Counted from the stretch's first letter, positions 2,515 through 50,678 are shown. The stretch: 64,000 nucleotides of DNA from an uncultured Pseudomonadales bacterium (GCA_964430265.1 CAYSEI010000004.1:45872-109871); one strand, 5' to 3'. Numbers and translations are program-made. Notes: generated by a model not told the origin, from the letters alone.

Positions 2515-2568
2515 AGAGTGAACAGCAGTGAATTGAATTAAAAAATTATTATTAAATTAAAAATTAAT

Positions 2569-4020: not shown

Positions 4021-4031
4021 GAGGAACTTAA

Positions 4032-30727: not shown

Positions 30728-32965
30728 ATGATTATAAATAAAAAAAACATCTGGATTATTATATCCCTAGCTGCAGTAATTTTATTTTTTAGTTTTTTGT
30801 TAATTAAAAAAGGAGTACCTTTACCAGCAGATGCTTTAGTTGGCATGTATCATCCCTGGAGGGACTTGTATAAAAAGGAATTTCCAGTAGGTTATCCTTA
30901 TAAAAACTTCTTAATTACAGATCCGGTTAGGCAGCAGTATCCCTGGAAAACTGCAGTCATAAACCAGTTTAAACAAAAACAACTGCCGCTTTGGAACCCT
31001 TATTCTTTTTCCGGTTATCCTTTGCTGGCAAATTTTCAATCAGGTGCTTTTTATTTTATTAATATACTTTTTTTGACATTTAATTTTAATTTAGGATGGA
31101 GTTTGTATATTATTTTGCAGCCAGTTCTTGCGCTTCTTTTTATGTATTTGTTTTTAAAAGATAAAGTTGATAGATTTTCAGCATTAATAGGGAGTATTGC
31201 TTTTTCTTTTTCCGGGTTTATAGTTGCGTGGTTTGAGTGGGGGAATGTTGGTCATACATTTATTTGGCTACCATTGATTTTTTATACATTAGAAAAGATT
31301 ATTAGAAAAAAAAGTTGGAAATACGCCCTTTTGTTTATTTTTGCTTTAAGCAGCAGCTTTTTTGCCGGCCATTTACAAACCGCTTTTTATGTTATTTTAG
31401 TTAGTGTTTTATATAGTTTATCAATGATTTTTAAGCTAAAAAAGACAAGCAAAATATTAGCTATAAAAAGAATTTCAATTGCTTTTTTATTCTTCACAAT
31501 CTTAACTTCAATCCAATGGTTGCCAACATTAAATTTAATCCAAAAAAGCACCCGCGGATTAAATGTGCCCAAACTACTTTTTCTGCCGTTTAAACACTTG
31601 ATACAGATGTTTTTTCCTGACTTTTTTGGTAATCCGGCTACTTTGAATTATTGGGGTGAATGGAATTATTTAGAATATATTTCCTATATTGGTATTATTC
31701 CAATATTTTTTGCACTTTATTATATTTTCAGTAGTTCTTTTAGTAAAAATCGCTTTTTTAAAATAACATTAATAATAAGTATTTTATTTGCGACCAATAA
31801 TCCCATTGCTAAACTTCCATTTGCTTTAAACATTCCTTTTATATCCACATCTTCGCCAGCAAGACTTGTATCATTAATATGTTTTTCCAGTGCAGTTTTG
31901 TCAGCATATGGAGCCAAGAAATTTTTAAAACAAAAAAAGATAAAAGCCCTTTTAATTTTTACACTTTTTATATTTATATCCTGGGTAGTTGTATATTTTC
32001 TTGATGCAAGACCTCACAGCAAATATTTACGCTACAACGTAACCAAAAGAAATCTGATCCTGCCAACGGCAATATTTTTAACTTTTGCTTGCGGATTTTT
32101 TATTAAAAATATCTTAAAAAAGTTTTTAAACAAAAAAATAGCAAAATATCTTGAATATTTATTTTTGCTGGGAATATTAATTATTGTTTTATTTGACGGA
32201 TTTAGGTTTTTATCTAAATTCAACCCCTTTATTAAAAAAGATTTAATTTATCCGGATACAAAAATTTTAAGTTATCTGCAGGAAGATAAAGAAAAATTTA
32301 GAGTTATTGCTCCGGATGAAAGAATCTTAATACCTAACAGCGCAATTCCATACAAAATAGAAACTGTACAAGGATATGATCCTTTAATGCTTAAAAATTA
32401 TGTTTCTCTTGTCCAATACTCTGAAACAGGTGAGTTTAATAAAAAGTACCCTAGAAGCAGGATAGTACAACCGCAGAATATAGAAACTGGATTAATAGAT
32501 ATCTTAAATGTCAAATATTTACTTACATTTGATGAATTTGGAGAAGAATTTGAAAAAATAATGGAGGAAGGAGAAACCAAGCTTTATAAAAACCCCAATT
32601 ATCTTCCGCGAATATATTTTGCAAACGAATTGCAGTTTTTAGAAAATAAAGAAGAAATATACAAAAAAATTATTAATGAACAAAAAACAACTACTGACAG
32701 GATAGTCTATAAAATAGGACAGCAAGAGAATAAAGTATGTGATCAAGCTGAGATCCTGGAAAGTAATATTAAAGCAAATCAAATAACTGTCAAAACAAAT
32801 AACAGCAATGATTGTTATTTAGTTGTTTCTCAAGTTTATTATCCGACTTGGAGTGTAATTGTGGACAATAAAAAGAAAAAAATTGAACAAGTAAACTCAA
32901 TATTTCCTGCAGTTAAACTTAATAAGGGAGAACACGAAGTGACATTTAAAAATAATTTGCTATAA
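30728..32965 (+). CDS. YfhO-like large membrane glycosyltransferase (GT-C)
   Basis: 745 aa. WNPYSFSGYPLLANFQSGAFYFINILF. C-terminal YYPTWSVIVDNKKKKIEQVNSIFPAVKLNKGEHEVTFKN. Confidence 0.55.
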   Translation: MIINKKNIWIIISLAAVILFFSFLLIKKGVPLPADALVGMYHPWRDLYKKEFPVGYPYKNFLITDPVRQQYPWKTAVINQFKQKQLPLWNPYSFSGYPLLANFQSGAFYFINILFLTFNFNLGWSLYIILQPVLALLFMYLFLKDKVDRFSALIGSIAFSFSGFIVAWFEWGNVGHTFIWLPLIFYTLEKIIRKKSWKYALLFIFALSSSFFAGHLQTAFYVILVSVLYSLSMIFKLKKTSKILAIKRISIAFLFFTILTSIQWLPTLNLIQKSTRGLNVPKLLFLPFKHLIQMFFPDFFGNPATLNYWGEWNYLEYISYIGIIPIFFALYYIFSSSFSKNRFFKITLIISILFATNNPIAKLPFALNIPFISTSSPARLVSLICFSSAVLSAYGAKKFLKQKKIKALLIFTLFIFISWVVVYFLDARPHSKYLRYNVTKRNLILPTAIFLTFACGFFIKNILKKFLNKKIAKYLEYLFLLGILIIVLFDGFRFLSKFNPFIKKDLIYPDTKILSYLQEDKEKFRVIAPDERILIPNSAIPYKIETVQGYDPLMLKNYVSLVQYSETGEFNKKYPRSRIVQPQNIETGLIDILNVKYLLTFDEFGEEFEKIMEEGETKLYKNPNYLPRIYFANELQFLENKEEIYKKIINEQKTTTDRIVYKIGQQENKVCDQAEILESNIKANQITVKTNNSNDCYLVVSQVYYPTWSVIVDNKKKKIEQVNSIFPAVKLNKGEHEVTFKNNLL

Positions 32966-32973
32966 TTGCAAAA

Positions 32974-33882
32974 ATGAAATACAGCATAATAATTCCAAAC
33001 TATAACGGAAAAGAACTATTAAAAAAGAACCTTCCCTCTCTTATTAATCTGTTAAAAAGAGACGACAACTTACTTGAAATAATAGTTGTTGATGACGCTT
33101 CAAATGACCAAAGTATAGAATTTGTTAAAAAAAAATACCCTGATATTAAACTTTTAATTAATAAAGAAAACAAAGGTTTTGCATATTCTTGTAATCGTGG
33201 TGTAGAAAAAGCAAAAGGAGAGGTGGTTATTCTTTTAAATACGGATGCGGTATTTAAAAACAAAACAATAACCGACAAAATAGATACCTATTTCAAAAAT
33301 GATGATGTATTTGCAGTCGGTTTTTTGGATATTGTGAAAGAAAAAGGGGAAATTCAAGAGCATGGTAGAGGAATCGGCTATTTTAAAAAAGGCTGGTTCT
33401 TTCATAAAAAGGCAAGCCTGAAAAAAGGATATTCTTTATGGGCTTCTGGAGGAAGTTCAGCTTTTTGCAAAGAAAAATGGGACAAACTAAACGGATTTGA
33501 CACAATATATTCGCCTTTTTACTGGGAAGATGTTGATCTGGGATTTAGAGGCTGGCTTAATGGTTACAAAATATATTTTGATCCGGATATTAAAGTTGCA
33601 CACAATCATGAAAAAGGAAGTATTAAGAGCAATTACGAAAAAAAACAGATTGAAATAATTTCTTACAGAAATCAGTTTTTATTCAACTGGAAATATTTTA
33701 ATCGGGGTAAATATTTACTCAAACAAATTTTAGGATTTTTTTATTACTCGTTTTTTGCACTTATGGCCAATGAATGGACGTTTTTTAAAGGATTTTTTTC
33801 TGCATTGAAAAAAATAAAGCAGCTGAATAAAAAAAAGTTTGATCCAAACAAATTTCAAGATAAAAACATATTGGAAATATGA
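32974..33882 (+). CDS. GT2 family glycosyltransferase
   Basis: YSIIIPNYNGKELL...IIVVDDASNDQS...LLNTDAV. 302 aa. Confidence 0.7.
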   Translation: MKYSIIIPNYNGKELLKKNLPSLINLLKRDDNLLEIIVVDDASNDQSIEFVKKKYPDIKLLINKENKGFAYSCNRGVEKAKGEVVILLNTDAVFKNKTITDKIDTYFKNDDVFAVGFLDIVKEKGEIQEHGRGIGYFKKGWFFHKKASLKKGYSLWASGGSSAFCKEKWDKLNGFDTIYSPFYWEDVDLGFRGWLNGYKIYFDPDIKVAHNHEKGSIKSNYEKKQIEIISYRNQFLFNWKYFNRGKYLLKQILGFFYYSFFALMANEWTFFKGFFSALKKIKQLNKKKFDPNKFQDKNILEI

Positions 33883-35513
33883 AGATAAATTTAAAACTTC
33901 TGGGCATTTTTATATTAGGACTTTTGTTAAGAATTATTTTATTAAGCCAGATTCCTTCTGGTTTACACCGGGATGAAGTTTCTACTGGGTATAATGCCTA
34001 CAGCATAATAAAGACAGGAAAAGATGAGTATCAAAGAAGTGTGCCCTTAGTATTTGAAGCTTTTGGCGACTGGAAAAGGCCTTTAAATATTTATTTATCT
34101 GTTCCTTTTATTTTTATATTTGGCTTAAATGCCTTATCTGTAAGACTGCCTATTACAATTTTGGGTGCTTTAAGTGTTTTGTTAACCTACTTGATTGTTA
34201 AAAAACTTTTTCCTGTTAAAAGATCCTTGGCTTTAATTAGTGCCCTGGTTTTTGCTATTTCCCCATGGCATGTGTTTATGTCACGGACCGGGCTGGGTTG
34301 GAATGTTGTTGGCTTGTTTTTTACATTGATTGCTTTTTTGTTTTTATTAAAATCGTTTAAAAAGGATTACTGCTTAGTAATATCCAGTTTTTTATGGGGG
34401 GTAACCTTATTTACCTACGCCAGCAACCAGATACTTACACCTATTTTTCTTGTGCTTCTTTTATTTTTATATTTTAAAAAAATAATTAAAAATAAATATT
34501 TTTTTATTAGTCTAGTCGTTTTTATACTTTTGTTTGCAGTTTTTCTTAAAGTTTATGTACCTGTATTTCAGGTCAATGCAGTAGGTTCTAGTTTTATTAA
34601 TCCGCTTTATACTTTTACGCATATTGAACAAAAAAGAGTTCAATCTGGTAGGCCAAATTCTATCTTAATAAGGCTTGTTTACAACCGCCTCACTGTTTAT
34701 TCAGTTAAATTTATAAAAAACTTTTTTACTGCTTTTTCTCCTAAAACGCTATTTTTACCATTAAAATCAAATAAAGCTTATAGTTTAAAAAACCATGGGA
34801 ATCTTTATTTAATTGAGATATTCTTTTTAATATTAGGATTATTTGCCTTGAGAAAGCAAAAGATAAAAAAAATCTTTTTGCTTTTAGGATGGTTTTTTAT
34901 TTCCTTTGTACCGGCAGCATTAACTATTGACCCTCAGGCCAGTACCCGCTCAATAACAGCATTATTCCCTATATCAGTTTTAATTGCTATGGGTATAAAT
35001 AAAATAATGGATATTTTTAAGAGCAAAAATAGTCAAAAAATAGTAGAAATAGTAATTATTCTAGGATACCTTACTGTATTTAGCTATTTTATAAAAGCAT
35101 ATTTTATTGATTTTCCTAATAATAGAGCAGAAGTACATGGATACGGATGGAAAAAAATTATTGCTTATGAAAACAAACTTAATCCGGAAAATGTGTATGT
35201 AGCAACACCGGAAGATCAATATTACATTTATTTTCTTTTTTATAATAAGATAAAACCACAAGTTTTTTGGGATACTGTTAATAGGGGAGAAATGACCAGA
35301 GACGGATTCCAGAGGGTAACAGATTTTTCAGATTACCATTTTATTGGTAAAATAGACTGGCAAAACCTGGGGAAATACAAAAACAGCCTTTTAATAAAAA
35401 AGATTGATAACAAAAAACTGGAGGAATTAAGAAAGTATTATTCGGAAGCTGAGGAAAAAAAGATTATAAAACTACCTAATGGAGAACCAGAATGGCTATT
35501 AATAAAAACATAA
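33879..35513 (+). CDS. PMT_2/ArnT-like GT-C glycosyltransferase (tandem array member 1)
   Basis: LHRDEVSTGYNAYSI (DE loop), ISPWHVFMSRTG, and a soluble C-terminal domain. Paralogous to 35492, 37186, 39290 and 40983. Confidence 0.6.
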   Translation: MKINLKLLGIFILGLLLRIILLSQIPSGLHRDEVSTGYNAYSIIKTGKDEYQRSVPLVFEAFGDWKRPLNIYLSVPFIFIFGLNALSVRLPITILGALSVLLTYLIVKKLFPVKRSLALISALVFAISPWHVFMSRTGLGWNVVGLFFTLIAFLFLLKSFKKDYCLVISSFLWGVTLFTYASNQILTPIFLVLLLFLYFKKIIKNKYFFISLVVFILLFAVFLKVYVPVFQVNAVGSSFINPLYTFTHIEQKRVQSGRPNSILIRLVYNRLTVYSVKFIKNFFTAFSPKTLFLPLKSNKAYSLKNHGNLYLIEIFFLILGLFALRKQKIKKIFLLLGWFFISFVPAALTIDPQASTRSITALFPISVLIAMGINKIMDIFKSKNSQKIVEIVIILGYLTVFSYFIKAYFIDFPNNRAEVHGYGWKKIIAYENKLNPENVYVATPEDQYYIYFLFYNKIKPQVFWDTVNRGEMTRDGFQRVTDFSDYHFIGKIDWQNLGKYKNSLLIKKIDNKKLEELRKYYSEAEEKKIIKLPNGEPEWLLIKT

Positions 35514-37189
35514 TAAATAATAAGATCATAAAAAAAGTAAGAAATCTTTTTAAAAACAGGAAATTATTACTAATAATAATCTTGTTTATTGCAGCATTTT
35601 TACGTTTTTATAAGCTGGGTAAAATACCGCCGGCATTGCAATGGGATGAAATTTCCATGGGCTATGAATCCTACAGCATTCTTAAAACCGGCAAGGACCA
35701 GTTTGGTAATTTTTTACCTGTATTTTTCCGCTGTTTAGATGATTGGAAGCCGGGAATGTATATGTATATTTCTGTAATTCCAATAGCTTTATTTGGACTA
35801 AATGCTTTTTCCGTCCGCTTTGGGGTAGCTTTTTTTGGTGTTCTTTCTGTTTATTTTACTTACCTTTTGTTTAAGGAAATATTTAAAAACAATAAAAATA
35901 AAGAAATAATTGCTTTGTTAACCAGTTTCTTGCTTGCGGTTTCTCCTTGGCATCTGCAAGTTACTCATGCTTTGTATCAGGTGAGTATTTCAATTTTTTT
36001 ATTAATACTTGCAGTGTATTTATTTTTTAAAGGATTAGAAAAAAATAAATATCTCTGGTTTTCTTCATTTCTTTTTGGGCTGGGATTTTACTCATATACC
36101 AGTGCAAGAATTGTTTTACCCTTAATGTGGTTATCTATGATTTTGATCCATAACCACAAAATCCTATTCAAGAAAAAGAAAATGCTTGCATTTTTTATCC
36201 CTTTTTTAGTTTTGCTTTTTTTATACATTCCGCATTTAAATGAGCCGGGTGCAAAGATCCGTTTTGAAGCTACTAATATTTTGCAAATGGAAGAATATGC
36301 AGATAATTCTATACTTGAAGTTTTAGAAGATAAAAAAAGAGGTGCTTATTTAGGGGGCAGGATATTTCATAACCGCAGATTTGCTTTTATCAACTGGGAA
36401 AACACAGGAGAAGTAATCAGGAACTATTTTTCACATTTCAGGCCGGAATTTTTATTTATTAAAGCGGATGTGCCTCTACACCATGCACCAAATATGGGTT
36501 TATTGTATGCTGTAGAAATACCTTTTGTTGTTTTAGGATTTTTATTATTTCTTAAAAACAAACTAAACAGAAAAACATTAATAATTTTAGCGTGGTTTTT
36601 AATTGCTCCTATTCCTGCATCAGTGACCCGACAGGTGCCGCACACTATTAGGACTGCACTTTTTTTGCCTACGTTCCAGTTTTTTACGGCTTTCGGATTT
36701 ATAAAAACATTTGAATTTATTAAAAGGGAAAGAAAATTGTTTGCTTATCTGTTTACAGGAATTGTTATATTTTTGCTAACATACAATATTGGTTACTACT
36801 TGCATCAGTTTTATGTGCATCTGCCATATGAATATTCCCAATTTTGGAAATATGCGAGGAAGCAGGCTGTTGAATATACTGAAGAAAACAAGCATAAGTA
36901 TGATCAAGTTCTTGTTTCTACAGATTTGGAATTTCCTTGGATTTTCTGGCTCTTTTATGCAAAGTATCCGCCTCAAGAATATTTAGAGGATGGTGGCACA
37001 GTCAGTGGTGGTTTTGCAGCCCAGGAAAATAGTTTTGATAAATATGATTTTCGTAAGTTTGATTATGATGCAGAAAAAAGCCAGAACTTTTTATTTGTGG
37101 GGAATCCGAAAGAATTTCCGCATTTTGCTGATGTTGTTAAAGAGATTGAATATAAAAATGGAGAAAAAGCAATTATAATTGCCAAATGA
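35492..37189 (+). CDS. PMT_2/ArnT-like GT-C glycosyltransferase (array member 2)
   Basis: LQWDEISMGYESYSIL, VSPWHLQVTHA, FHNRRFAFINW, VPHTIRTALFLPTFQ and C-terminal YPPQEYLEDGGTVSGGF. Confidence 0.6.
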   Translation: MAINKNIINNKIIKKVRNLFKNRKLLLIIILFIAAFLRFYKLGKIPPALQWDEISMGYESYSILKTGKDQFGNFLPVFFRCLDDWKPGMYMYISVIPIALFGLNAFSVRFGVAFFGVLSVYFTYLLFKEIFKNNKNKEIIALLTSFLLAVSPWHLQVTHALYQVSISIFLLILAVYLFFKGLEKNKYLWFSSFLFGLGFYSYTSARIVLPLMWLSMILIHNHKILFKKKKMLAFFIPFLVLLFLYIPHLNEPGAKIRFEATNILQMEEYADNSILEVLEDKKRGAYLGGRIFHNRRFAFINWENTGEVIRNYFSHFRPEFLFIKADVPLHHAPNMGLLYAVEIPFVVLGFLLFLKNKLNRKTLIILAWFLIAPIPASVTRQVPHTIRTALFLPTFQFFTAFGFIKTFEFIKRERKLFAYLFTGIVIFLLTYNIGYYLHQFYVHLPYEYSQFWKYARKQAVEYTEENKHKYDQVLVSTDLEFPWIFWLFYAKYPPQEYLEDGGTVSGGFAAQENSFDKYDFRKFDYDAEKSQNFLFVGNPKEFPHFADVVKEIEYKNGEKAIIIAK

Positions 37190-38703
37190 AAAAAACAATA
37201 ATTATTCTTATTTTGATCTTAGCCTTAGCAGCTTTTTTACGTTTTTATAAAATTTCAATTTATCCGCCTGGCTTGTATATTGACGAAGTATCAATTGGCT
37301 ATAATGCATATACAATTTTGCAAAAAGGGGTGGACCAGCATGGTGTTAAATATCCTATATGGTTTAAAGCGTTTGGAGAATACAAGCTGCCGGTTTATAT
37401 ATATCTAACCAGTCTGACAATGTTTGTTTTTGGTAAAAGTGTTTTTAGTGTGAGGTTTTTTTCTGCTTTTTTTGGCATTTTAACAATACTTTTCTTCTAT
37501 TTGTTTGTAAAGGATTTATTAAAAAAAGAGTTTAAAAATGAAAGTAAATCAATTGCTTTATTATCTACCTTTTTGTTAACTATTTCCCCTTGGCATTTAC
37601 AGCTTTCAAGGGCAGGTTTTGAAGTAAATGTTGCACTTTTCTTTTTTGTTTTGGGTTCTTGGCTGTGTTTAGTATTTTATCAGCAGAAAAAGTTAAGATA
37701 TCTAATTTTTGGGTATCTTAGTTTCGTATTAACTTTTTATACTTACAACAGCTTTAGATTAATAACACCATTAGTTTTAACATTTTTATCTGTATATTTT
37801 TATGTTAAAAAATTTATTAAAAGAAAAAAATTAGTTATTGTTTACTTGCTGTTTTTTATACTCAGTATCCCAATGCTGTTTTTTTCATTATCAACTGAAG
37901 GCGGAAGAAGGCTAACACAAATTTCTGCTTTTAATAAAGAAGGGATTAATACACCGTTGCAAAAAGCTTTACATTATCCTTTAATTTATTTTAATAAATA
38001 TATTCTGCATTTTTCTAATAATTTTTTGTTTAATTACGGTGACGGAATAAAAAGACATGTAATGAGGGATTTTGGTGTTTTACCCCGCTGGCAGTTACCT
38101 ATAATAATTATTGGAGCTGTTTTTGTTTTTAAAAATATAAAAAAAACATGGAGTAAAGTTTTAGTTGGTTTGATATTAATTGCTCCTATGGCTTCTTCTT
38201 TAACAGATTTAAGTCCACACGCTCTTCGATCTTATTTACTGGTTATCCCATTTATATCCTTGGTATCTTTAGGTTTGTATTTTATTTACAAGAAATTTAA
38301 GGGAATAAAAATGTGGTTTATTTTAACAATAATTAGTTTAGTTGCTTTGTATGAATTTGTTTTTCACCAGCATTTTTATTATGTGCATTATCCGCAGGCA
38401 AGAGTTCTTGACTGGGGCGCTGGATATAAACAAACTGTTGATAAAACAGCTGAACTGGGCAAAAATTATTCAAAAATTTATGTTAGTGAGAAAATTGGTG
38501 GTGAAATATATTTTCAATTTTATAATGATAAATTAGAAGTTGAATTTGTAGAACCGGGAAAAAACAAGCCGGAAGATCTAAAAGGAACAGATATTTTATA
38601 TGTTACCGGTCCAGTTGAAAAACCATCAGATAAAAAGCTAGATGAAGTTTATTTTCCATATAAATTAAATAAAGACGTTTTTGCAACTTTTTGGGAAATA
38701 TAG
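37186..38703 (+). CDS. PMT_2/ArnT-like GT-C glycosyltransferase (array member 3)
   Basis: LYIDEVSIGYNAYTIL, ISPWHLQLSRAGFEVN and SPHALRSYLLVIPF. Confidence 0.6.
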   Translation: MKKTIIILILILALAAFLRFYKISIYPPGLYIDEVSIGYNAYTILQKGVDQHGVKYPIWFKAFGEYKLPVYIYLTSLTMFVFGKSVFSVRFFSAFFGILTILFFYLFVKDLLKKEFKNESKSIALLSTFLLTISPWHLQLSRAGFEVNVALFFFVLGSWLCLVFYQQKKLRYLIFGYLSFVLTFYTYNSFRLITPLVLTFLSVYFYVKKFIKRKKLVIVYLLFFILSIPMLFFSLSTEGGRRLTQISAFNKEGINTPLQKALHYPLIYFNKYILHFSNNFLFNYGDGIKRHVMRDFGVLPRWQLPIIIIGAVFVFKNIKKTWSKVLVGLILIAPMASSLTDLSPHALRSYLLVIPFISLVSLGLYFIYKKFKGIKMWFILTIISLVALYEFVFHQHFYYVHYPQARVLDWGAGYKQTVDKTAELGKNYSKIYVSEKIGGEIYFQFYNDKLEVEFVEPGKNKPEDLKGTDILYVTGPVEKPSDKKLDEVYFPYKLNKDVFATFWEI

Positions 38704-39293
38704 TGAAAAAAAAGTATATTTTTTTACTAGTGTTAATAATTATTTTACAATTAATAACACTTAGACCTGTATTTAGATGCAGTCGTTGGGATAATCAATT
38801 CCATTTTAGTAGCCTGAATTTAAAACTGCAGATAAATTCAGCCATTTTTGCAGATCAAAATGTGCCTAACTTGTTAACCCGCGCTATGCATAACAAGATA
38901 ACCTATTTTGTGCTAGATGTTTTTCGCAGATATATGTACTTTACTGATTTTAAATTTTTATTAAGCTATTTATTACCTGTTGGATTAATTGGTTTTTTAA
39001 CTGCTATTTATTTTATTTTTAAAAATAAAATATTTAAATGTAAATATAGAGATTTCTGGGTAATTATTTTTTCTTTTTCAATACTGACACATTTATTTGA
39101 AATTATATTTAATCCCGGATTGTCTTTTATCTTAAAAACAACAATCTTATTATTACCCCATTATTTATTGTCCAGTTATGGAATTTATAAACTGTTGGAG
39201 AAAAGAACTATTTTAGTTATTTTACTGCTTATTATAAGTGTAATGTGGCTACAGGTTTATTCCCAAGAGATACTTAATTTTTGTATGGTATGA
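38703..39293 (+). pseudogene. truncated remnant of a PMT_2/ArnT-like paralog (middle TM portion only)
   Basis: GTG 38703 (track gives TTG 38691). The 197-aa product ...TRAMHNKITYFVLDVFRRYMYFTDFKFLLSYLLPVGLIGFLTAIYFIFKNK aligns with the HNRR...F...G..Y...K mid-section of its neighbours. It lacks both the N-terminal DE loop and the C-terminal domain. Confidence 0.35.
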
Positions 39294-40993
39294 AATTCTT
39301 ATATAATACACTTATGAATTTAAAACTTGATAAATCTAAAGAATTAGTAATTTTTTTAGCGATTCTGATTTTAGCTGCATTTTTACGCTTTTATAAGCTG
39401 GGAAAAATACCACCGGCGCTTAACTGGGATGAAACAGCACAGGCATACAATGCTTATTCAATCTTAAAAACAGGGAAGGATGAACATCAGAAATCTTTTC
39501 CGCATGTATATTTAACTTCATTTGGAGATTATAAGCCGCCTTTATATACCTATTTGACAGTGCCTAGTCTTTATTTTTTTGGCAATAACGCTTTTGCAGT
39601 CCGCTTTGTCTCCTCTTTATCCGGATTGATAACAGTTGGAGCAACTTATTATCTTGTAAAAGAGATTTTTAAAGATAGAAAAAAAATCAAAAACAATTTG
39701 GCTTTAATAGTTTCTTTTTTATTAGCAATCTCACCTTGGCATATCCAGCTGTCCAGAGCTGCATATGAAGCTAACTTGGCAACTTTGTTAACAACAACGG
39801 GAGTTTTATTTCTTTTAAAAGGTATTAAAAAGAAGAAATATTTATATTTATCTGCAATTTTATTTGCACTCAGTTTTTATACTTTTAACACGCCAAGGGT
39901 TTTTGTTCCTTTACTAGGGTTAAGCTTTGTTGTTACGCATTTTAAAAAGATTTGGCAAAATAAAAAGCATTTTATATTAGCAGCCGGTTTATTTATTTTA
40001 ATTGTTGCACCCCTTGTACCGCATATGTTATCTGAAGAAGGAAGACTGCGTTACCGTGAGGTTAACATCTTTTCCAATATCAAGCCTTTACAACAAGCTA
40101 ATCAGAGGATGCAGATTGATAATAATACCTGGTGGTCAAGAATCTTACATAACCGCAGGTTTGTTTACAGCCGTTTGTTTTTAAAACACTACTTTGATCA
40201 TTTTAAAGCTAAATATCTTTTTTTTACAGGTGATAGAAATCCACGTTTTTCCTCACAGGATGTTGGCCAGCTATATTTATTTTCTTTACCGTTTTTAGTT
40301 ATGGGTATTATTTATTTAATAAAAGCAATTAATAAAAAAGAGCATTCAATAAAAGAAACTAATAATAAAATAATATTTGTTTTTCTCTGGTTTTTTACAG
40401 CCATTATTCCTGCAGCAACAGCCAGAGAAACTCCTCATGCTTTAAGAACAGAAGTAATATTGCCTACATTTCAGATTTTTATTGGCTACGGCATTATTAT
40501 GTTTTGGGACAAGATAAAGAAAGCAAAAAAGAATAAGAAATTTAAAAAGTATCTGCAGATATCTACAATTTCAGTTTATTTGCTGTTTCTTTTTTATTTT
40601 TTACATAATTACTTTGTTCATTACCCAATTAAATATGCTTCAGAATGGCAGTATGGATACAAAGAAGCTTTTGAATATACAGCTCAAGTTGAAGATGAAT
40701 ATGAGAAAATTATTGTTAGCAAAAACTTGGGCCGGCCTTATATTTATTTCCTTTTTTATAACCAATATCCGCCGCAAAAATATTGGGAGGACAAAAGAGA
40801 AAATATTAAACCTTTTGGGGTACGGGAGGTTAATGGTTTTGGCAAATACTATTTTGTTGACAAAGGTGATGATATTGATGCGCCAAATGCATTATGGATT
40901 ATGCCTCCATCACAAAAACCTAAAAATGCAAAAATAATAAAAGAGATTGTGCAGCCAGATAAAAAGGTGGTTTTTTATATTTATGAAACTTAA
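39290..40993 (+). CDS. PMT_2/ArnT-like GT-C glycosyltransferase (array member 4)
   Basis: ATG 39290 overlaps the upstream stop as ATGA (alternative ATG at 39314). LNWDETAQAYNAYSIL, ISPWHIQLSRAAYEAN, LHNRRFVYS, TPHALRTEVILPTFQ and YPPQKYWED. Confidence 0.6.
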   Translation: MKFLYNTLMNLKLDKSKELVIFLAILILAAFLRFYKLGKIPPALNWDETAQAYNAYSILKTGKDEHQKSFPHVYLTSFGDYKPPLYTYLTVPSLYFFGNNAFAVRFVSSLSGLITVGATYYLVKEIFKDRKKIKNNLALIVSFLLAISPWHIQLSRAAYEANLATLLTTTGVLFLLKGIKKKKYLYLSAILFALSFYTFNTPRVFVPLLGLSFVVTHFKKIWQNKKHFILAAGLFILIVAPLVPHMLSEEGRLRYREVNIFSNIKPLQQANQRMQIDNNTWWSRILHNRRFVYSRLFLKHYFDHFKAKYLFFTGDRNPRFSSQDVGQLYLFSLPFLVMGIIYLIKAINKKEHSIKETNNKIIFVFLWFFTAIIPAATARETPHALRTEVILPTFQIFIGYGIIMFWDKIKKAKKNKKFKKYLQISTISVYLLFLFYFLHNYFVHYPIKYASEWQYGYKEAFEYTAQVEDEYEKIIVSKNLGRPYIYFLFYNQYPPQKYWEDKRENIKPFGVREVNGFGKYYFVDKGDDIDAPNALWIMPPSQKPKNAKIIKEIVQPDKKVVFYIYET

Positions 40994-42632
40994 AAAAATA
41001 TTATTTGTTCTAATACTGTTTTTATCAATTATATTAAGGTTTGCAAATTTTCCCAATGTTCCTCCAAGCCCGGACTGGGATGAAGCGGCAATTGGCTGGA
41101 ATGCTTATTCTTTAATAGAGACAGGAAGAGACGAGTTTAATCAAAAATTTCCTCTTACATTTAGATCTTTTGATGATTATAAACCCCCCTTGTACTTTTA
41201 TTTAACAGTACCTGCCGTTAAAGTGTTTGGAATAAATATCTTTGCTGTACGTTTACCTTCGGCTGTTTTTGGGGTTATATCTGTTATAGGAACCTACCTT
41301 TTAGTAAAAAATTTGTTCAATAACAAAAATCTAGCTTTGTTGTCAATGTTTTTTATGGCAGTTTCGCCCTGGCACTTGCAGTTTTCAAGAATTGCTTTTG
41401 AAGCAAATGTAGCTTTAGCTTTTAAGATTTGGGCCACTTATTTGTTTTTAGTTTCTATGAGTAATAAAAAATCAGAGAAGTTTTTTAATAAAGGATTATT
41501 AATTGTTTTGTCAGCAATTTTATTTGGACTGGCTTTGTACACCTATCATAGTGCAAGGGTGTTTGTTCCAGTTTTAGTTCTATTATTAACTTTATTTAAC
41601 TGGAAAAAATTATTAAAAATACGTAAAAAAGTTTTAATCGGATTCTTAGTTGGTATGATTTTTGTTATACCCTTAGTAAGGATAATGACCAGCAAGCAAG
41701 GCCAGATGCGTTTAAAAGGGGTAAGTTCTTTTTCCAATACTGTTGAATTATTAAAAGAAGACAGCTTAAGAATTCAAGCTGACTTGGAAAATGGTTTTAG
41801 ATTGGGAAGATTAATCCACAACCGCAGAATAAGATATGTTTTAAGATTTATGGAAAGCTATTTTGCGCATTGGGATTTGAATTGGCTGTTTCTAAATACT
41901 GAAGGTGATGTACAGCGCCATCATGCACCAGATATGGGGTTGTTGTATTTATGGGAGCTTCCTTTTGTATTGATTGGTATTTATCAATTATTTTTCTCCA
42001 AAAAGAAAAGAGCAAAAAGAGATGTATTTGCATGGTTTTTAATTGCTCCTTTGGCTTCTTCAGTTTCTGCTGATGTGCCGCATGCTGTTAGAACCTTATG
42101 CTTTTTACCCACCTGGCATATATTTACCTCATTGGGTGTTTTAAAAACTTATGACTATTTAAAAGATAAAAACAAAATACTAAAAACAACGGCTTTCGTT
42201 TTTCTATCAAGTGCATTTGTTTTCAATTGCATATTTTATCTACACCAGTATCATGTGCATCAGCGGATTGAGTATTCAAAATATTGGCAATATGGGTATA
42301 AAGAATTGTACAAGGAGCTGAAAGAAATTGAAGATGAATATAGTCAGGTTCGCGTCTCCATAGAAGCAGAACAGCCTTACATGTTTTATCTTTTTTATGC
42401 TCAATACCCGCCCCAAAAATATCTAAAACAAGGAGGGACTCCTTCAGGCGGTTTTTGGGAGGAACACACAATTGGCAAATATCATTTTGTCAGGTTTAAC
42501 TGGAATGAGGAGTCTAAGAAGAATGATATAGTTTGGGCAGTGGTTGACAAGGAATTGCCTGCAAATGTTGATGTGATTAAAACTATTAATTTGTTAAATG
42601 GGGAACCATATTTACATATATTTAAATTATAA
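40983..42632 (+). CDS. PMT_2/ArnT-like GT-C glycosyltransferase (array member 5)
   Basis: ATG 40983 (track TTG 40947). PDWDEAAIGWNAYSLIETGRDEF, VSPWHLQFSRIAFEAN, IHNRRIRYV, VPHAVRTLCFLPTWH and YPPQKYLKQGGTPSGGF. Confidence 0.6.
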   Translation: MKLKKILFVLILFLSIILRFANFPNVPPSPDWDEAAIGWNAYSLIETGRDEFNQKFPLTFRSFDDYKPPLYFYLTVPAVKVFGINIFAVRLPSAVFGVISVIGTYLLVKNLFNNKNLALLSMFFMAVSPWHLQFSRIAFEANVALAFKIWATYLFLVSMSNKKSEKFFNKGLLIVLSAILFGLALYTYHSARVFVPVLVLLLTLFNWKKLLKIRKKVLIGFLVGMIFVIPLVRIMTSKQGQMRLKGVSSFSNTVELLKEDSLRIQADLENGFRLGRLIHNRRIRYVLRFMESYFAHWDLNWLFLNTEGDVQRHHAPDMGLLYLWELPFVLIGIYQLFFSKKKRAKRDVFAWFLIAPLASSVSADVPHAVRTLCFLPTWHIFTSLGVLKTYDYLKDKNKILKTTAFVFLSSAFVFNCIFYLHQYHVHQRIEYSKYWQYGYKELYKELKEIEDEYSQVRVSIEAEQPYMFYLFYAQYPPQKYLKQGGTPSGGFWEEHTIGKYHFVRFNWNEESKKNDIVWAVVDKELPANVDVIKTINLLNGEPYLHIFKL

Positions 42633-42647
42633 TAGAGAAGAGGACAT

Positions 42648-43385
42648 ATGAAAAAAACTAAAGTTGTAGTTGTAATGCCTGCTTACAATGCAGAACAAAC
42701 TTTGGAAAAAACATATAAAGATATCCCCAAAAGAAAAGTTGATGAAATAATTCTTGTTGATGATAAATCAAATGACAATACTGTGAAAAAAGCAAAAGAG
42801 CTTAAAATTAAAACATTCAGCCACAAGAAAAACAAAGGATATGGCGGGAACCAGAAAACCTGCTATAAAAAAGCTTTAAAAGAAGGAGCAGACATTATTG
42901 TAATGCTGCATCCTGATTATCAGTACGATCCGAAATTAATAGGCGAAATGATTGAACCTATTAAAAAGAATAAGTACGACATAATTCTTGGTAATAGGAT
43001 TAGGTCCAGAAAAGAAGCTTTTGAAGGAGGAATGCCAAAAACAAAGTATTTTTTAAACAGAATGCTGACTTTTATTGAAAACGTTGTTTTGGGGACAAAC
43101 CTCCGTGAACACTTATCTGGATACAGAGCATACACAAAGGAAGTTTTAAAAACTTTGCCTTTAAAGAAAATGAGTGATGACTTTGTATTTGATCAGCAGT
43201 TTACTATTTCAGCAACATACTCAGGCTTTGATATTGGCCATATTGAAGTGCCGGTAAGATATTTTGATGAAGCATCTTCAATCCAGTTTATCCGGGGGAC
43301 AAAGTTTATGCTGCAGACTTTCTGGACATTATTTTTATTTACTCTAGCAAAAAATGGTATTTATAAAGCTAAAGTATTTAAATGA
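42648..43385 (+). CDS. DPM1/GtrB-like GT2 polyprenyl-phosphate glycosyltransferase
   Basis: VVVVMPAYNAEQTL...ILVDDKSNDNT...MLHPDYQYDP. 245 aa. Confidence 0.75.
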   Translation: MKKTKVVVVMPAYNAEQTLEKTYKDIPKRKVDEIILVDDKSNDNTVKKAKELKIKTFSHKKNKGYGGNQKTCYKKALKEGADIIVMLHPDYQYDPKLIGEMIEPIKKNKYDIILGNRIRSRKEAFEGGMPKTKYFLNRMLTFIENVVLGTNLREHLSGYRAYTKEVLKTLPLKKMSDDFVFDQQFTISATYSGFDIGHIEVPVRYFDEASSIQFIRGTKFMLQTFWTLFLFTLAKNGIYKAKVFK

Positions 43386-46418: not shown

Positions 46419-47462
46419 ATGAAAATTGCAGTATCTTTTAAAAACCACAAAAACGAAGCTAAAAGAGGCATAGATTTTTATACTGATAAAATAGTGGAAG
46501 GAATTAAATCAAGGGAAAAAATTGAACTGGTTAAAGAAGATGCAGCAGATTTAATTCACTTGACCAGTGCAGATTTTTTTAACAACCCCAGATTTGATCT
46601 GCTGAATAAAAAATATATTTACACAATTCACGACTTAATTCCGATTAAGTTCTCCGAGCATTTTCCTAAAGGAATAAAAGGAAGCACAAAATGGATGTTT
46701 AACCGGATTATTATGAAAAAAGCAAAATTTATGATAACCGATTCCGTAAGCTCAAAAAACGATATTGTAAAGATTATTAAATATCCTGAAGAAAAGATTA
46801 CAGTTATTCCATTAGCTCCAAGAGAAAATTTTAAATTAATGACAAAAGAAGAAAAGGAAAAGTTTTCCTCTGTCAAGGAAAAATATAATATTGCTGATGA
46901 TTTTGTATTATATGTGGGTGACGTAAACTGGAATAAAAACTTGCCTGGACTAGCAAAAGCATGTATTGAACTTGAATATCCGCTAGTTGTTGTTGGATCT
47001 AAAGCAGATAAAGAAAAATTCAATTCCAAACATCCAGAAAACAAGCCGCTTAAGGAATTCAAACAAATCCAAAAGAAAAACCCTGAATTAATCATTACAA
47101 CAGGATTTATACCTGAACGCTATTTAGTTTATATATACAATATTGCCAGACTATACTGCCAGCCGTCATATTATGAAGGATTTGGATTACCTGTTCTTGA
47201 AGCAATGGCATGCGGATGTCCGGTTTTATCTTCAAATCAGGGAAGTCTGCCTGAAGTAGGCAATAAAGCAGCAGTATATTTTAATCCCTATTATAAAGAA
47301 GAAATCAAAAGAAAACTTAAAAAATTTTGGAAATTAAAAGATAATCAGGTAAAATATCAAGAGTTAAGCAAAAATTGTCTGCAAAATGCAGACCAATATT
47401 CTTGGGAACAAACATTGGAAAAGACATTTAATGTTTATAGAAAGGCACTAAATGAAAATTGA
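46419..47462 (+). CDS. GT4 (Glycos_transf_1) glycosyltransferase
   Basis: YYEGFGLPVLEAMACGCPVLSSNQGSLPEV. 347 aa. Confidence 0.7.
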   Translation: MKIAVSFKNHKNEAKRGIDFYTDKIVEGIKSREKIELVKEDAADLIHLTSADFFNNPRFDLLNKKYIYTIHDLIPIKFSEHFPKGIKGSTKWMFNRIIMKKAKFMITDSVSSKNDIVKIIKYPEEKITVIPLAPRENFKLMTKEEKEKFSSVKEKYNIADDFVLYVGDVNWNKNLPGLAKACIELEYPLVVVGSKADKEKFNSKHPENKPLKEFKQIQKKNPELIITTGFIPERYLVYIYNIARLYCQPSYYEGFGLPVLEAMACGCPVLSSNQGSLPEVGNKAAVYFNPYYKEEIKRKLKKFWKLKDNQVKYQELSKNCLQNADQYSWEQTLEKTFNVYRKALNEN

Positions 47463-49068
47463 TAAACATAAAATCCTTTTGATTTTTATTATTTTAATAG
47501 CGGTTTTTTTCCGTTTTTATAATTTAAAAGATAATTTTAATTTTACTTATGATGCAGGCCGGGACCATATCCGCATAAACAACATATATGAAAATAAAGA
47601 TATAAAAATTGTTGGAACAGAAACTGATATTCCAGGTGTTTTTAGCGGTGCTTTTTATTATTATATGCTTATTCCTGGTCAAATAATTACTAAGGGAAAC
47701 CCGAATGCATCTATTTATCTTTTAGCATTTATAAATTTATTAGCTGTCCCCTTTATATATTTAATAACTAAAGAGTTATTTGATAATAAAACTACAGCCT
47801 TGATCGCTTCTTTTATTTCTGCAGTTTCATATTTTTTAGTCAACTATTCCCGTTTTCTTTCCAATGCTTCGCCCTTGCCTTTATCTATTGCTGTTTTCTT
47901 TTATGGTTTGCTTTTATGGAAGAAAGGCAAAAAAAACGGTTTTCCCTTAGCAATGCTGGGGCTTGGATTATCTACGCAATTTGACTATTTATATATTTAC
48001 TTATTTGTATACCTGCTGATAATCAAACTTTTATATAATCCTAAATTAAATAAAAAAGAACTTTTAAAGGGTTTTGTTGCAGGTTTAATAACTTTTAGCA
48101 CTTATATAATCGCAGAAATTAAATTTAAGTTTTTAGGAACAAGAGAACTGATAAGTTTTATTGCTGAGGGAGTAAATGAAGTTTCAGCTCAAGCAGCAAT
48201 TGATAAATATATTAATAAAATTGTAAGAATTACGGGGTATAACTTTTTCCATTTTAATTTTTTCCTTTCTTTATTAATTTTTGTTTTTATGATTTATTTT
48301 TCTTTTACAAGAACCAAGAAGAAAAAATATATAGAAAACCTTGAATTTGTTTTGTTGTGGTTTTTTTCATCTCTTTTAGTTCTTGGATTTAATACTGGAG
48401 GAGTAAATCTGCCGTTGATTATTAATAGCGGAATAATTTTTCCAGCAATTATTTTAGTTGCCTATTTTGGGCAAAAAGTTTATGCCAAAAATAAATTATT
48501 ATTTGCTTTAATGATTGTTATGATTTTCACAAGCAATCTTATTCTATATTTTGAAAGCAACTGGGTACCTTCAGATCTGAATAATCCCGGAAATAAAATG
48601 CTTTTGAAATATCAAAAACAAGCGCTTGATTATATGTATCAAGAAGCAGATGGAAAGGACTTTGCTTTTTGTGGGCTTACTCAGCCTCTTTTTATCAACT
48701 CGACATGGGCACACTTATTTGAATGGTATGGCAAAAGCAAATATGGATATCTTCCATACTGGTCTGGCCCAAAGCAAAATCCGCAATTTGGAGCATCTGA
48801 TATTCAAAAAGAAGAAGAGTTCAAGGAAACAAGATTTATTATCTATGAACCACCCTATGGGTTAAAAGAGGAAATGTATACTCATACGAGGATTGTTGCT
48901 GACAGAACTACAGAGGTTGTTGAAAAAAAGAACTTTGGTGCAATTGAAGTGGAAAAAAGACGAATCTTAAAAGGAGAGGAAAGAGAACAAGCGGAAAAAG
49001 AATTTCAATTAAAAAGCAAACAATACAAAGATGTTCTAGATAGTGATATTCGCTACAATTGCTTATGA
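47452..49068 (+). CDS. GT-C-like membrane protein, D-x-G-R-D family (tandem duplicate A)
   Basis: YDAGRDHIRINNIYENKDIKIVGTETDIPGVFSGAFYYYMLIPGQ. C-terminal soluble domain ends RRILKGEEREQAEKEF. Confidence 0.5.
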   Translation: MKIDKHKILLIFIILIAVFFRFYNLKDNFNFTYDAGRDHIRINNIYENKDIKIVGTETDIPGVFSGAFYYYMLIPGQIITKGNPNASIYLLAFINLLAVPFIYLITKELFDNKTTALIASFISAVSYFLVNYSRFLSNASPLPLSIAVFFYGLLLWKKGKKNGFPLAMLGLGLSTQFDYLYIYLFVYLLIIKLLYNPKLNKKELLKGFVAGLITFSTYIIAEIKFKFLGTRELISFIAEGVNEVSAQAAIDKYINKIVRITGYNFFHFNFFLSLLIFVFMIYFSFTRTKKKKYIENLEFVLLWFFSSLLVLGFNTGGVNLPLIINSGIIFPAIILVAYFGQKVYAKNKLLFALMIVMIFTSNLILYFESNWVPSDLNNPGNKMLLKYQKQALDYMYQEADGKDFAFCGLTQPLFINSTWAHLFEWYGKSKYGYLPYWSGPKQNPQFGASDIQKEEEFKETRFIIYEPPYGLKEEMYTHTRIVADRTTEVVEKKNFGAIEVEKRRILKGEEREQAEKEFQLKSKQYKDVLDSDIRYNCL

Positions 49069-50678
49069 ATAAAAAAACAAAAAATATATTACTAATAATT
49101 ATTTTAATAATTGCAGTATTTTTCCGTTTTTATAACCTCGAGGATAATTTTAATTTTTCTTATGACCAGGGAAGAGATCATTTAAGGGTAAATAACATGA
49201 TTGATAACTTAGAGGTAAAAATTGTTGGAACGGAGACAGATATTCCAGGAATTTTTAGCGGGTCTTTATATTACTACATGTTGATCCCCGGGCAAATAAT
49301 CAGTAATGGCAGTCCCAATGCTTCAATATATTTATTAGCCTTTTTGAACTTATTGAGCATTCCTTTAGTTTATTTAATAACCAAGGAGTTGTTTAAAAGT
49401 AAGATAACGGCTTTAATTGCTTGTTTTATTGCTACTTTTTCATATTTCCTGGTGAACTATTCACGTTACCTTTCAAATGCTTCTCTTTTACCTTTAACAA
49501 CTGCAATTTTCTTTTATGGTTTGCTTTTGTGGATAAAAGAAAAGAAAAACGGTTTTCCGCTTGCTATTTTAGGATGGGGATTGTCAACGCAAGCTGATTT
49601 TTTCTATATCTATCTTTTTGTATTTATACTTTTAATTAAGGTAATGTATAATCCCAGAATAAAAAAGAAAGAACTTTTAAAAGGATTTATTGCGGGTTTA
49701 ATTACTTTTAGCACATTTATTGTAGCAGAAATTAAATTTAAATTTTTGGGAATAAAAGAGCTAACAAAATATATTAGTCAGTCATCAACTCAAGTTAGCG
49801 TAGCTTCTGCAATAGATAAGTTTATAAATAAAATGGGGGTAGTGACAACTCATTCCTTTTTTAAGTTTAATCTTTTTTTGTCCTTATTAATTTTAGGATT
49901 TATGATTTATTTTTCTTTTACAAGAACAAAAGATAAGAAAAATATAAGAAGTCTTGAGTTTGTTATGTTTTGGCTTTTATCTTCAAGCTTACTTTTTGGT
50001 TTTGATACTGGTGCGGTTAACGTAGCAATAATTATTAATGGAGCACTGGCCTTTCCAATCATAATATTGTTAGCTTTTTTTGCTAAAAAAGTTTATGAAA
50101 AGAATAAATTCTTATTTATAACAATGATACTATTAGTTTTTATCAGCAATTTAAGCTTGTATTTTGAAAGCAATTGGGTGCCCAATGAATTGTCTTATCC
50201 GGGAAATCACTTTCTTTTAAAATATGAAAAGCAAGTTTTGGATTATATGTATAAAGAAGCTGATAATCAGGAGTTTTCTTTTTGTGCAGTTACTCAGCCT
50301 GCATTTATAAATTCTACCTGGGCATATTTGTTTGAATGGTATGGTGAAAATAAGTATGGGTATTTGCCGTATTGGTCAGGAACTGAACAAAATCCACAGT
50401 TTAGCGATACAGAAATTCAAAAAGAAGGAGAATTTAAAGAAACCAGGTTTATAATTTATGAACCACACATAAGTAAAGATAGTGAGTTATATGTTTCCAC
50501 AAAATTATTTGCAGATAGAACTACAGAGTTGATTGAAAGTAAACAAATTAATGAATTTATTATTGAAAAAAGAAGAATCTTGAAAGGTGAAGAAAGAGAA
50601 AAAGCGGAAAAAGTATTTAAGAAAAAAATTAAACAAAACCAGAATTTTATTTATGATCACAGATATAACTGCTTATGA
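49065..50678 (+). CDS. GT-C-like membrane protein, D-x-G-R-D family (tandem duplicate B)
   Basis: ATG 49065 (ATGA overlap; track TTG 49059). YDQGRDHLRVNNMIDNLEVKIVGTETDIPGIFSGSLYYYMLIPGQ. Collinear and highly similar to 47452 along its full length. Confidence 0.5.
   Translation: MNKKTKNILLIIILIIAVFFRFYNLEDNFNFSYDQGRDHLRVNNMIDNLEVKIVGTETDIPGIFSGSLYYYMLIPGQIISNGSPNASIYLLAFLNLLSIPLVYLITKELFKSKITALIACFIATFSYFLVNYSRYLSNASLLPLTTAIFFYGLLLWIKEKKNGFPLAILGWGLSTQADFFYIYLFVFILLIKVMYNPRIKKKELLKGFIAGLITFSTFIVAEIKFKFLGIKELTKYISQSSTQVSVASAIDKFINKMGVVTTHSFFKFNLFLSLLILGFMIYFSFTRTKDKKNIRSLEFVMFWLLSSSLLFGFDTGAVNVAIIINGALAFPIIILLAFFAKKVYEKNKFLFITMILLVFISNLSLYFESNWVPNELSYPGNHFLLKYEKQVLDYMYKEADNQEFSFCAVTQPAFINSTWAYLFEWYGENKYGYLPYWSGTEQNPQFSDTEIQKEGEFKETRFIIYEPHISKDSELYVSTKLFADRTTELIESKQINEFIIEKRRILKGEEREKAEKVFKKKIKQNQNFIYDHRYNCL

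Follow-up and report, generated by a model that had tools for sequence, protein, structure and literature searches.

This report concerns a tandem array of membrane glycosyltransferase (GT) genes, and a small gene embedded in it, within a stretch of 64,000 nucleotides deposited as DNA of an uncultured Pseudomonadales bacterium (GCA_964430265.1, CAYSEI010000004.1:45872-109871); the whole of this stretch is referred to as the window. A preliminary description of the window had read positions 33879–42632 as a head-to-tail array of five full-length PMT_2/ArnT-like paralogs plus one decayed copy. Six open reading frames (ORFs), designated here A, B, C, X, D, and E, were found at the positions given there, all on the plus strand. 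The five large ones are diverged, full-length paralogs. The small one, X, is, as far as sequence analysis goes, a functional, conserved, and selected gene rather than a decaying copy, and it is paired with C, a paralog that has lost a motif retained by X. The genes of the block and the two GT2 genes that border it are as follows.

32974–33882, plus strand: upstream GT2 glycosyltransferase, 302 amino acids (aa); Pfam Glycos_transf_2, E = 1e-24
33879–35513, plus strand: paralog A, GT-C (PMT_2), 544 aa; PMT_2, E = 4e-10
35492–37189, plus strand: paralog B, GT-C (PMT_2), 565 aa; PMT_2, E = 3e-13
37186–38703, plus strand: paralog C, GT-C (PMT_2), 505 aa; PMT_2, E = 8e-10
38703–39293, plus strand: X, a membrane protein of 196 aa that starts with GTG and has five transmembrane (TM) helices; no match in Pfam or NCBIfam
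39290–40993, plus strand: paralog D, GT-C (PMT_2/PMT), 567 aa; PMT_2, E = 3e-14, and PMT, E = 2e-9
40983–42632, plus strand: paralog E, GT-C (PMT_2/PMT), 549 aa; PMT_2, E = 2e-17
42648–43385, plus strand: downstream GT2, 245 aa; Pfam Glycos_transf_2, E = 3e-28

Pairwise blastp comparisons aligned A–E with one another over nearly their full lengths at 29–38% identity (E = 1e-37 to 1e-122). B, D, and E form the closest trio (37–38% for B against the other two). A and C stand further off, and A (29–34% identical to B–E) is both the most diverged and the most patchily distributed paralog type. All five proteins exceed the gathering threshold of Pfam PMT_2 (PF13231; 26.1 bits), with scores of 40.6 (A), 50.9 (B), 39.5 (C), 53.8 (D), and 64.2 bits (E). 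The PMT model (PF02366) is passed by D (37.8 bits) and E (40.6 bits), narrowly missed by C (22.3 bits against a cut-off of 22.7), and not matched by A or B; neither MIR nor PMT_4TMC hits were obtained among the window ORFs scanned. A hidden Markov model (HMM) of the family scored A–E at 461–791 bits and the next-best window ORF at only 45 bits, and the subfamily is therefore confined to this interval within the window. These results bear out the assignment of the five large ORFs as full-length, diverged PMT_2/ArnT-like paralogs. The accompanying statement that each of them carries one common set of motifs stands in part. An Asp-Glu (D-E) motif in the first loop and an SPWH motif are present in all five, but the remaining motifs are not universal: HNRR is carried by B, D, and E, reads YNRL in A, and is deleted from C; PHxxR(T/S) is carried by C (SPHALRS), D, and E, reads VPHTIRT in B, and is degenerate in A (PQASTRS); and YPPQ(E/K)Y is confined to B, D, and E. 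Only D and E have the complete set as originally described, with B differing solely in its VPHTIRT.

The fold of the large proteins was examined with an AlphaFold2 model of E built on 56 homologs (pLDDT 91.9, pTM 0.92). All of the top Foldseek matches to this model in the PDB were GT-C enzymes, at 9–16% identity. The best overlap was with ArnT (TM-score 0.56/0.57, E = 7e-8); STT3, AglB, and PglB were matched at E = 3e-8 to 8e-6, followed by Pmt4, ALG12, Pmt1–Pmt2, ALG9, DPY19, AftD, and Emb. The STT3/AglB/PglB, PMT, and ALG matches spanned E = 3e-8 to 1e-4, and the Foldseek probability was 1.00 for ArnT, STT3, PglB, PMT, ALG9/12, DPY19, AftD, and Emb. The sole structure detectable in the PDB with a sequence profile was ArnT, weakly (E = 1e-4) and over the N-terminal module only. 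In the GT-C(A) class, seven TM helices are conserved, the catalytic base is carried by the helix with which the first luminal loop begins, the loop LL4 bridges the donor groove, an LL4 Arg and likewise an LL5 His bind the donor phosphate, a variable C-terminal module contacts the acceptor, and the donor is an isoprenoid-phosphate-linked sugar (PMC13503287). The helices of the E model read as seven TM helices up to residue 236, a long loop (residues 238–324), four more TM helices, and a 120-residue C-terminal domain. D33 and E34 (unchanged in all 56 family members compared and found in each of the five paralogs) sit at the start of a helix (residues 32–47) just after TM1. N280, R281, and R282 in the long loop are nearly invariant, and P366, H367, and R370 lie between TM9 and TM10, so that the conserved basic residues of E comprise R275, R281, and R282 in the LL4-like loop and H367 and R370 in the LL5-like loop. 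Judged by the model, A–E belong to the GT-C(A) structural class, whose TM layout and position of the acidic residue they share.

Identity among the five paralogs varies by region: 45% in the first loop, 37% in TM2–7, 26% in LL4, 28% in TM8–11, and 29% in the C-terminal domain. Divergence is thus concentrated in LL4, TM8–11, and the C-terminal domain (26–29%, against 37–45% in the N-terminal module), a pattern that fits paralogs differing mainly in acceptor recognition and agrees with the earlier suggestion that the array reflects diversified acceptor specificity. In the mechanism proposed here, transfer by each of A–E would most likely take place at the extracytoplasmic side of the membrane, with a polyprenyl-phosphate sugar as the donor. 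The base in catalysis would be the invariant Asp-Glu at the beginning of the helix that opens the first outer loop, and each paralog would act on a different acceptor. The donor would be made at the cytoplasmic face by the adjacent GT2 enzymes, which resemble dolichyl-phosphate mannose (Dol-P-Man) synthase. A polyprenyl-phosphate-sugar donor made next door fits because the downstream GT2 matches only a Dol-P-Man synthase in the PDB, the Pyrococcus enzyme 5mlz (E = 7e-12, residues 4–192); by this similarity the downstream GT2 is likely a polyprenyl-phosphate-sugar (donor) synthase. A GT2 of 245–251 aa also lies directly 3' of the E ortholog in three related loci (L001, L002, and L003). The upstream GT2 matches the same Dol-P-Man synthase (5mlz, E = 1e-8) together with generic GT2 enzymes.

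X is not a member of the PMT_2 family (no PF13231 hit), and searches of X against Pfam and NCBIfam returned no hit at E ≤ 1e-2. Pairwise BLAST of X against the five paralogs gave nothing significant (best E = 0.15), and a profile of the five paralogs scored X at a marginal 1.9 bits, ranking it third of 501 sequences (X and 500 shuffles), in an alignment collinear with the HNRR-to-PHxxR region. The relationship emerged when families were compared. With hhalign, an alignment of 70 X-family sequences matched one of 35 family enzymes with a probability of 96.5%, E = 8e-10, and a score of 74.6, placing X residues 47–170 on columns 270–403; reversed profiles scored at most 20.8 and 20 column shuffles at most 18.2. 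The X HMM on its own matched 25 full-length family proteins at E ≤ 1e-5 (down to 3.5e-13), with HMM positions ~5–190 collinear with residues ~215–430 of the long proteins, a span that covers TM7, LL4, and TM8–11. The long proteins matched best carry HNKI, like the motif of X, and hhalign aligned R60, H63, N64, and K65 of X with R275, H279, N280, and R281 of E. The proposal that 38703–39293 matches only the middle TM segment of the family is therefore upheld, by methods more sensitive than the pairwise BLAST to which the match is invisible. Of the three YfhO-type ORFs of the window, only the one at 30728–32965 is matched by the X HMM, whose TM8–11 part recognizes the corresponding region (residues 307–426, 26.3 bits; 300 shuffles scored at most -0.4), which indicates that an X-like module is detectable by sequence outside the PMT_2-type family. 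These alignments support derivation of X from a paralog that lost both its N-terminal and its C-terminal part. X would then be an ancient truncated derivative of an HNK-type paralog, consisting of one TM helix, an LL4-like outer loop with R-x-x-H-N-K, and four further TM helices. Nucleotide alignment of 38703–39293 to its neighbors, proposed earlier as a way to locate deletion breakpoints, found no remaining similarity, and the breakpoints are not mappable.

An exhaustive phmmer search of 1.84 billion representatives recovered 125 cluster representatives of the X family at E ≤ 1e-3, 74 of them at E ≤ 1e-10. Most are 190–205 aa long and align end to end, and no long GT-C protein is among the 125. 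All of the named members are called "hypothetical protein", and none is annotated. N64 and K65 are invariant, and C26, D51, R60, H63, G94, G160, and C194 are at least 90% conserved. Against an ortholog 85% identical to X, on a 2.2-kb contig, the ratio of nonsynonymous to synonymous substitution rates (dN/dS) was 0.138 at dS 0.57; on that contig, the neighboring C and D segments gave 0.12 and 0.11, respectively. Orthologs on a 51-kb contig from another sample (L001), at 51–73% identity, are saturated at synonymous sites, and dN/dS against them is uninformative. X is the least conserved gene of the block in that comparison (51% identity, against 64–73% for the others). The AlphaFold2 model of X (pLDDT 94.9) shows five TM helices, the first two of which are separated by a loop of 64 residues. 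Loop charges place this long loop and the C terminus outside, in keeping with the positive-inside rule, and a β-bridge pairs residues 27–28 with 194–195 next to the two conserved cysteines; an extracytoplasmic disulfide between C26 and C194 is probable on this model. Foldseek with the X model found no whole-fold match in the PDB (best E = 2). The start of X can be placed at the GTG (196 aa) or at a TTG at 38691 (200 aa). Directly after the GTG, eight A's (38706–38713; GTGAAAAAAAAG) encode the N-terminal lysines. The description of X as a deletion-truncated, decayed copy thus holds for its origin in a truncated paralog but not for decay, given the 125 representatives, the intact copies in related genomes, and a dN/dS of 0.14 like that of its neighbors.

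The position of X is as conserved as its sequence. In every locus with X (the window, L001, L002, L005–L011, and L092), X abuts or overlaps the stop codon of the gene before it, which matches C best; this upstream gene is 35–88% identical to C and 26–41% identical to the other paralogs, the latter over shorter alignments and with far weaker E-values. In one locus (L011) the C–X pair stands alone and is followed by a glutamine synthetase gene. The converse association was tested by scanning one genome per species with a C-type alignment, which yielded 333 relatives; 80 loci were kept, and the 158 long family ORFs in them were classified. C-type proteins lack the LL4 segment that carries HNRR, leaving a loop of 43 residues compared with 60–68 in the HNRR-bearing paralogs of the window, and also lack a hairpin of ~23 residues in the C-terminal domain; both deletions of C are common to its C-type orthologs. 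Under a strict definition of C-type (at least 37% identity to C, no HNRR, a loop of exactly 43 residues, and no C-terminal hairpin), the gene is followed by a small X gene in all 22 loci with downstream sequence, the start of X lying between -28 and +4 nt relative to the stop codon. Conversely, each of the 25 small X genes in the kept species-representative loci follows a loop-deleted family GT. The stretch removed from C-type proteins is the one that hhalign aligns with X residues 47–65, comprising a helix and the R-x-x-H-N-(R/K) motif. By these comparisons of sequence and gene order, C and X constitute a conserved, selected, and translationally coupled pair, in which C has lost the LL4 motif, whereas X, which keeps that motif, amounts to LL4 and the variable module as a free-standing protein.

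Several related loci depart from the common arrangement. Other small ORFs downstream of family GTs were checked for likeness to X, and none resembled it except two shorter Curtissbacteria-type ORFs, counted among the 25 small X genes above, at L037 3550–4014 (154 aa; X HMM E = 2e-9) and L039 3498–3956 (152 aa; E = 2e-11). These directly follow more distant loop-deleted family GTs of 503 and 496 aa, respectively, and may represent a second, diverged lineage of the C–X pair. ORFs of ~180–200 aa at L042 1875–2423, L061 1816–2421, and L078 1852–2448 overlap the stop codons of family GTs of ~495–500 aa and are not X-like (E > 5); they may belong to another family of small partners. In L031, the C-type gene is divided into two ORFs (149 and 322 aa) ahead of an intact 194-aa X, and in L032 the X ORF (5500–5919) is only 139 aa long; these disruptions could be real or assembly errors. 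Expression of C and X as a single fused protein by frameshifting was considered and rejected, given that the extent of the C/X overlap is not constant (-28 to +4 nt, depending on the locus) and that no fused proteins were seen. A different composite protein of 1122 aa, at L084 533–3901, has a family GT (residues 633–1068) after an N-terminal extension of ~630 residues.

The age of the array was assessed from the same collection of loci. On the 51-kb L001 contig, the order B-C-X-D-E-GT2 is kept, and one-to-one orthologs are 64% (B), 66% (C), 51% (X), 67% (D), and 73% (E) identical, compared with 27–40% across paralogs. Orthologs of E are 73% and 66% identical to it, and homologs at 44–50% identity, closer than the paralogs within the array, occur in many Gottesman-, Levy-, and other Microgenomates genomes. 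For every member of the array, the closest relatives are found in other genomes. A has no ortholog in L001 despite the synteny, and its nearest database relatives are 51%, 43%, and 39% identical. In place of A, the L001 contig has a minus-strand YfhO-type gene of 786 aa (2156–4516), which overlaps the end of the called GT2 gene. DNA shared between the paralogs is limited to patches of at most 69 nt at the codons of conserved motifs, and a DNA-level search for deletion breakpoints or gene conversion returned only these short conserved-codon patches and AT-rich chance matches. Because one-to-one orthologs stand in order in L001, closer relatives lie elsewhere, and only short patches of DNA are shared, the array is not a site of recent birth-and-death evolution. 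The duplications are old by this evidence, and the array is a stable, ancient set of paralogs whose membership varies slowly between lineages. The birth-and-death evolution invoked in the preliminary description is weakly borne out: copy number and membership do differ between genomes (A is absent from L001, and two to six copies occur elsewhere), but neither a pseudogene nor a recent duplicate is present in the interval. The 80 species-representative loci kept commonly have two to six family members in tandem, and the array itself is ordinary, such arrays being common in Microgenomates, part of the Candidate Phyla Radiation (CPR). Many of these Microgenomates-type loci (L013–L021 and many others) come from metagenome-assembled genome records titled "uncultured Gammaproteobacteria", or Methanosarcinales, Clostridia, or Limnocylindrales, titles that look like automatic mislabels.

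The explanation that best accounts for the block as a whole is a GT-C operon in which X is functional and is the obligate genomic partner of C, the two forming a two-chain enzyme; we rate it as evenly balanced between right and wrong. Taken by itself, the proposition that C and X form one enzyme, with X supplying the donor-capping, phosphate-binding loop in trans, is a tentative reading of the sequences, at best an even prospect and perhaps somewhat short of that. In such an enzyme, the X loop would cap the donor groove of C and bind the donor phosphate, and X may in addition contribute a second lipid- or acceptor-binding module. That C–X is the first described two-chain GT-C glycosyltransferase, with a stand-alone variable module (TM7, LL4, and TM8–11) long kept as an exchangeable unit, is possible but falls short of an even chance. 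Four points weigh against a two-chain enzyme or limit how its parts are named. About 22 other loop-deleted paralogs (loops of 30–41 residues) have no X-like ORF downstream, and the loss of HNRR alone therefore does not demand a trans-acting partner. C keeps its own TM8–11 and PHxxR motif, and most of X duplicates content already present in C. The identification of the long loop as LL4, and that of LL5, was drawn from the helix order of the model set against the published description. Finally, "GT39" and "ArnT-like" are automatic names only, public annotation of homologs reads "glycosyltransferase family 39 protein", and the NCBIfam scores for ArnT, Agl23, and STT3 are far below their cut-offs.

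X might instead serve the C-type enzyme by taking care of its lipid carrier: it could flip or deliver the polyprenyl-phosphate-sugar donor, or recycle polyprenyl phosphate, in analogy to GtrA or ArnE/ArnF. In favor of this, the other loop-deleted paralogs manage without X. A small multi-TM protein beside GT-C and GT2 genes is what three-component systems would offer, and X keeps residues homologous to the donor-phosphate-binding positions of GT-C(A) enzymes. However, X is unlike GtrA (PF04138), the EmrE-like ArnE/F, or any Pfam or NCBIfam family, and has no fold match in the PDB; a general role of this kind does not predict strict pairing with one paralog type that bears a complementary loop deletion, and only one such protein would serve an island with about 15 GT-C genes. 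A carrier role is judged rather unlikely. X could also be a non-catalytic, pseudoenzyme-like scaffold that stabilizes, localizes, or regulates the C-type enzyme or a hetero-oligomer of paralogs. Strict adjacency and overlapping stop and start codons do argue for a stoichiometric complex, and GT-C enzymes with accessory subunits or as obligate dimers are known, as in Gpi14–Pbn1 (PMC12653191) and Pmt1–Pmt2 (PDB 6p25). Yet the most conserved residues of X (R60, H63, N64, and K65) are the LL4 motif of the family and not a novel interface; this coincidence indicates a retained substrate-binding function, and a purely structural role appears unlikely. Highly improbable, lastly, is that X is a deletion-truncated paralog in decay, a pseudogene remnant in an array undergoing active birth-and-death turnover: X does lack significant pairwise similarity to its neighbors and a Pfam hit, corresponds to no more than the middle of the family, shows the lowest conservation in the block (51% against 64–73%), and sits among genes whose copy number differs between genomes, but its stand-alone family comprises 125 clusters, mostly of full-length members (190–205 aa) with invariant residues. 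X also occupies the same place as an intact ORF in each of the related loci, with neither frameshifts nor residual DNA similarity, has a dN/dS (0.14) equal to that of the flanking genes, and is part of an array whose members all predate the divergence of the genomes compared.

If C and X do form one enzyme, the GT-C fold would have been split naturally where its conserved module meets the variable one, and the pair would offer a handle on the contributions of LL4 and the variable module to donor and acceptor binding. The GT-C variable module would then be an autonomous and exchangeable unit of folding and function, and the case would caution against dismissing short ORFs between array paralogs as debris. 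X in any event defines an unannotated family, a stand-alone piece of a GT-C enzyme that is genetically bound to a single paralog type, one whose deletion is complementary to it, and the C–X pair is a concrete, testable oddity. The array around it is routine, yet shows how large a share of a very small genome is spent on surface glycans.

Several characterized systems offer partial parallels. Three-component systems (the GtrA/GtrB/Gtr type, ArnC/ArnE/ArnF/ArnT, and CsbB/YfhO) unite a GT-C transferase with a GT2 that makes the polyprenyl-phosphate sugar and with a small membrane protein. Here, too, a GT2, a small membrane protein, and GT-C enzymes are encoded together, and YfhO-type genes occur in the same island, but X is homologous to the GT-C variable module and not to a GtrA- or EmrE-like flippase, and it is tied to one paralog. 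In ArnT (CAZy GT83; PDB 5ezm and 5f15), the undecaprenyl-phosphate site lies under a cap formed by loop 4 (PMC13503287). ArnT is the enzyme whose structure overlaps most with the E model, and it has the same GT-C(A) layout with an extracytoplasmic C-terminal domain. It differs in its low identity (9–11%) and in having no stand-alone module partner like X; A–E reach only 16–20 bits against the cut-off of 567 for the NCBIfam ArnT equivalog (NF009784), and no arn operon genes were seen among the window ORFs scanned. CPR bacteria are not known to make lipid A. The PMT enzymes (CAZy GT39, including actinobacterial Pmt), which work as dimers, share the Pfam PMT and PMT_2 matches, the Asp-Glu in the first outer loop, and structural matches to Pmt1–Pmt2 and Pmt4. 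Against this, A, B, and C do not pass PF02366, the structural match extends over only ~260 residues within the N-terminal module, and there is no MIR or PMT_4TMC hit. STT3, AglB, and PglB gave the lowest Foldseek E-values (3e-8 to 8e-6, over 460–660 alignment columns) and likewise combine the GT-C(A) fold with an extracytoplasmic C-terminal domain; they differ in TM-scores of 0.47–0.52, 12–16% identity, and a score of 15.9 bits against a cut-off of 450 for the NCBIfam archaeal STT3 model. In NCBIfam at large, no A–E score came near a cut-off; the only hits, to the ArnT, Agl23, STT3, and LA_3751 families, were all below threshold, and these labels were rejected. A–E are roughly equidistant from ArnT, PMT, and STT3 and are not members of the ArnT equivalog.

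The nearest functional parallel to a second subunit is glycosylphosphatidylinositol (GPI) mannosyltransferase I, Gpi14–Pbn1 or PIG-M–PIG-X, in which a GT-C catalytic subunit needs a smaller second membrane protein (PMC12653191). X differs in its derivation from a GT-C module and in keeping the LL4 motif of the family. Pbn1 or PIG-X is not known to derive from such a module. In the searchable literature, no description was found of CPR GT-C arrays or of a stand-alone GT-C variable-module protein locked to one paralog.

Gene spacing through the block is tight. ATGA overlaps join the upstream GT2 to A, B to C, and X to D; C and X share 1 nt in TAGTG (the C stop being TAG); and A/B and D/E overlap by 22 and 11 nt, respectively. 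The ATGA overlap of the upstream GT2 stop with the A start places that gene in the same operon. A scan of the block gave no promoter-like or terminator-like matches above shuffle expectation, and an Rfam search gave no match. The overlapping junctions, together with promoter and terminator matches that do not exceed chance, argue that the block is part of one long operon. As a component of the best explanation, the interval is read as the core of a tightly packed operon in a cell-envelope glycosylation island of roughly 50 kb. The window is AT-rich (28–36% G+C per 2-kb window), and in the ORF and Pfam scan glycosylation genes occupy nearly all of it from ~10 kb to 62 kb. Besides A–E, this island contains PMT_2-type ORFs at 10464, 14572, 16138, 21635, 44943 (minus strand), 47452, 49059, and 59337, as well as three YfhO-type ORFs, a second PTPS_related ORF (19999), a PIG-V-like ORF, several GT2 and GT4 genes, and a Wzx-like flippase, with about 15 GT-C genes in all. 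The host of the locus, in the same best explanation, is a Microgenomates-type (CPR/Patescibacteria) bacterium.

Three further features of the island were recorded. The 729-aa ORF at 10464–12653 (plus strand) has an N-terminal GT2 domain (E = 8e-29) fused to a C-terminal PMT_2-type GT-C domain and may be a donor synthase joined to its transferase. The three YfhO-type GT-C paralogs, at 30728–32965 (plus strand), 17615–20005, and 24755–27163, are 29–33% identical. The adjoining PMT_2-type ORFs at 47452–49068 and 49059–50678 (plus strand), 67% identical and unrelated to the A–E subfamily, are the only recent tandem duplicate in the window.

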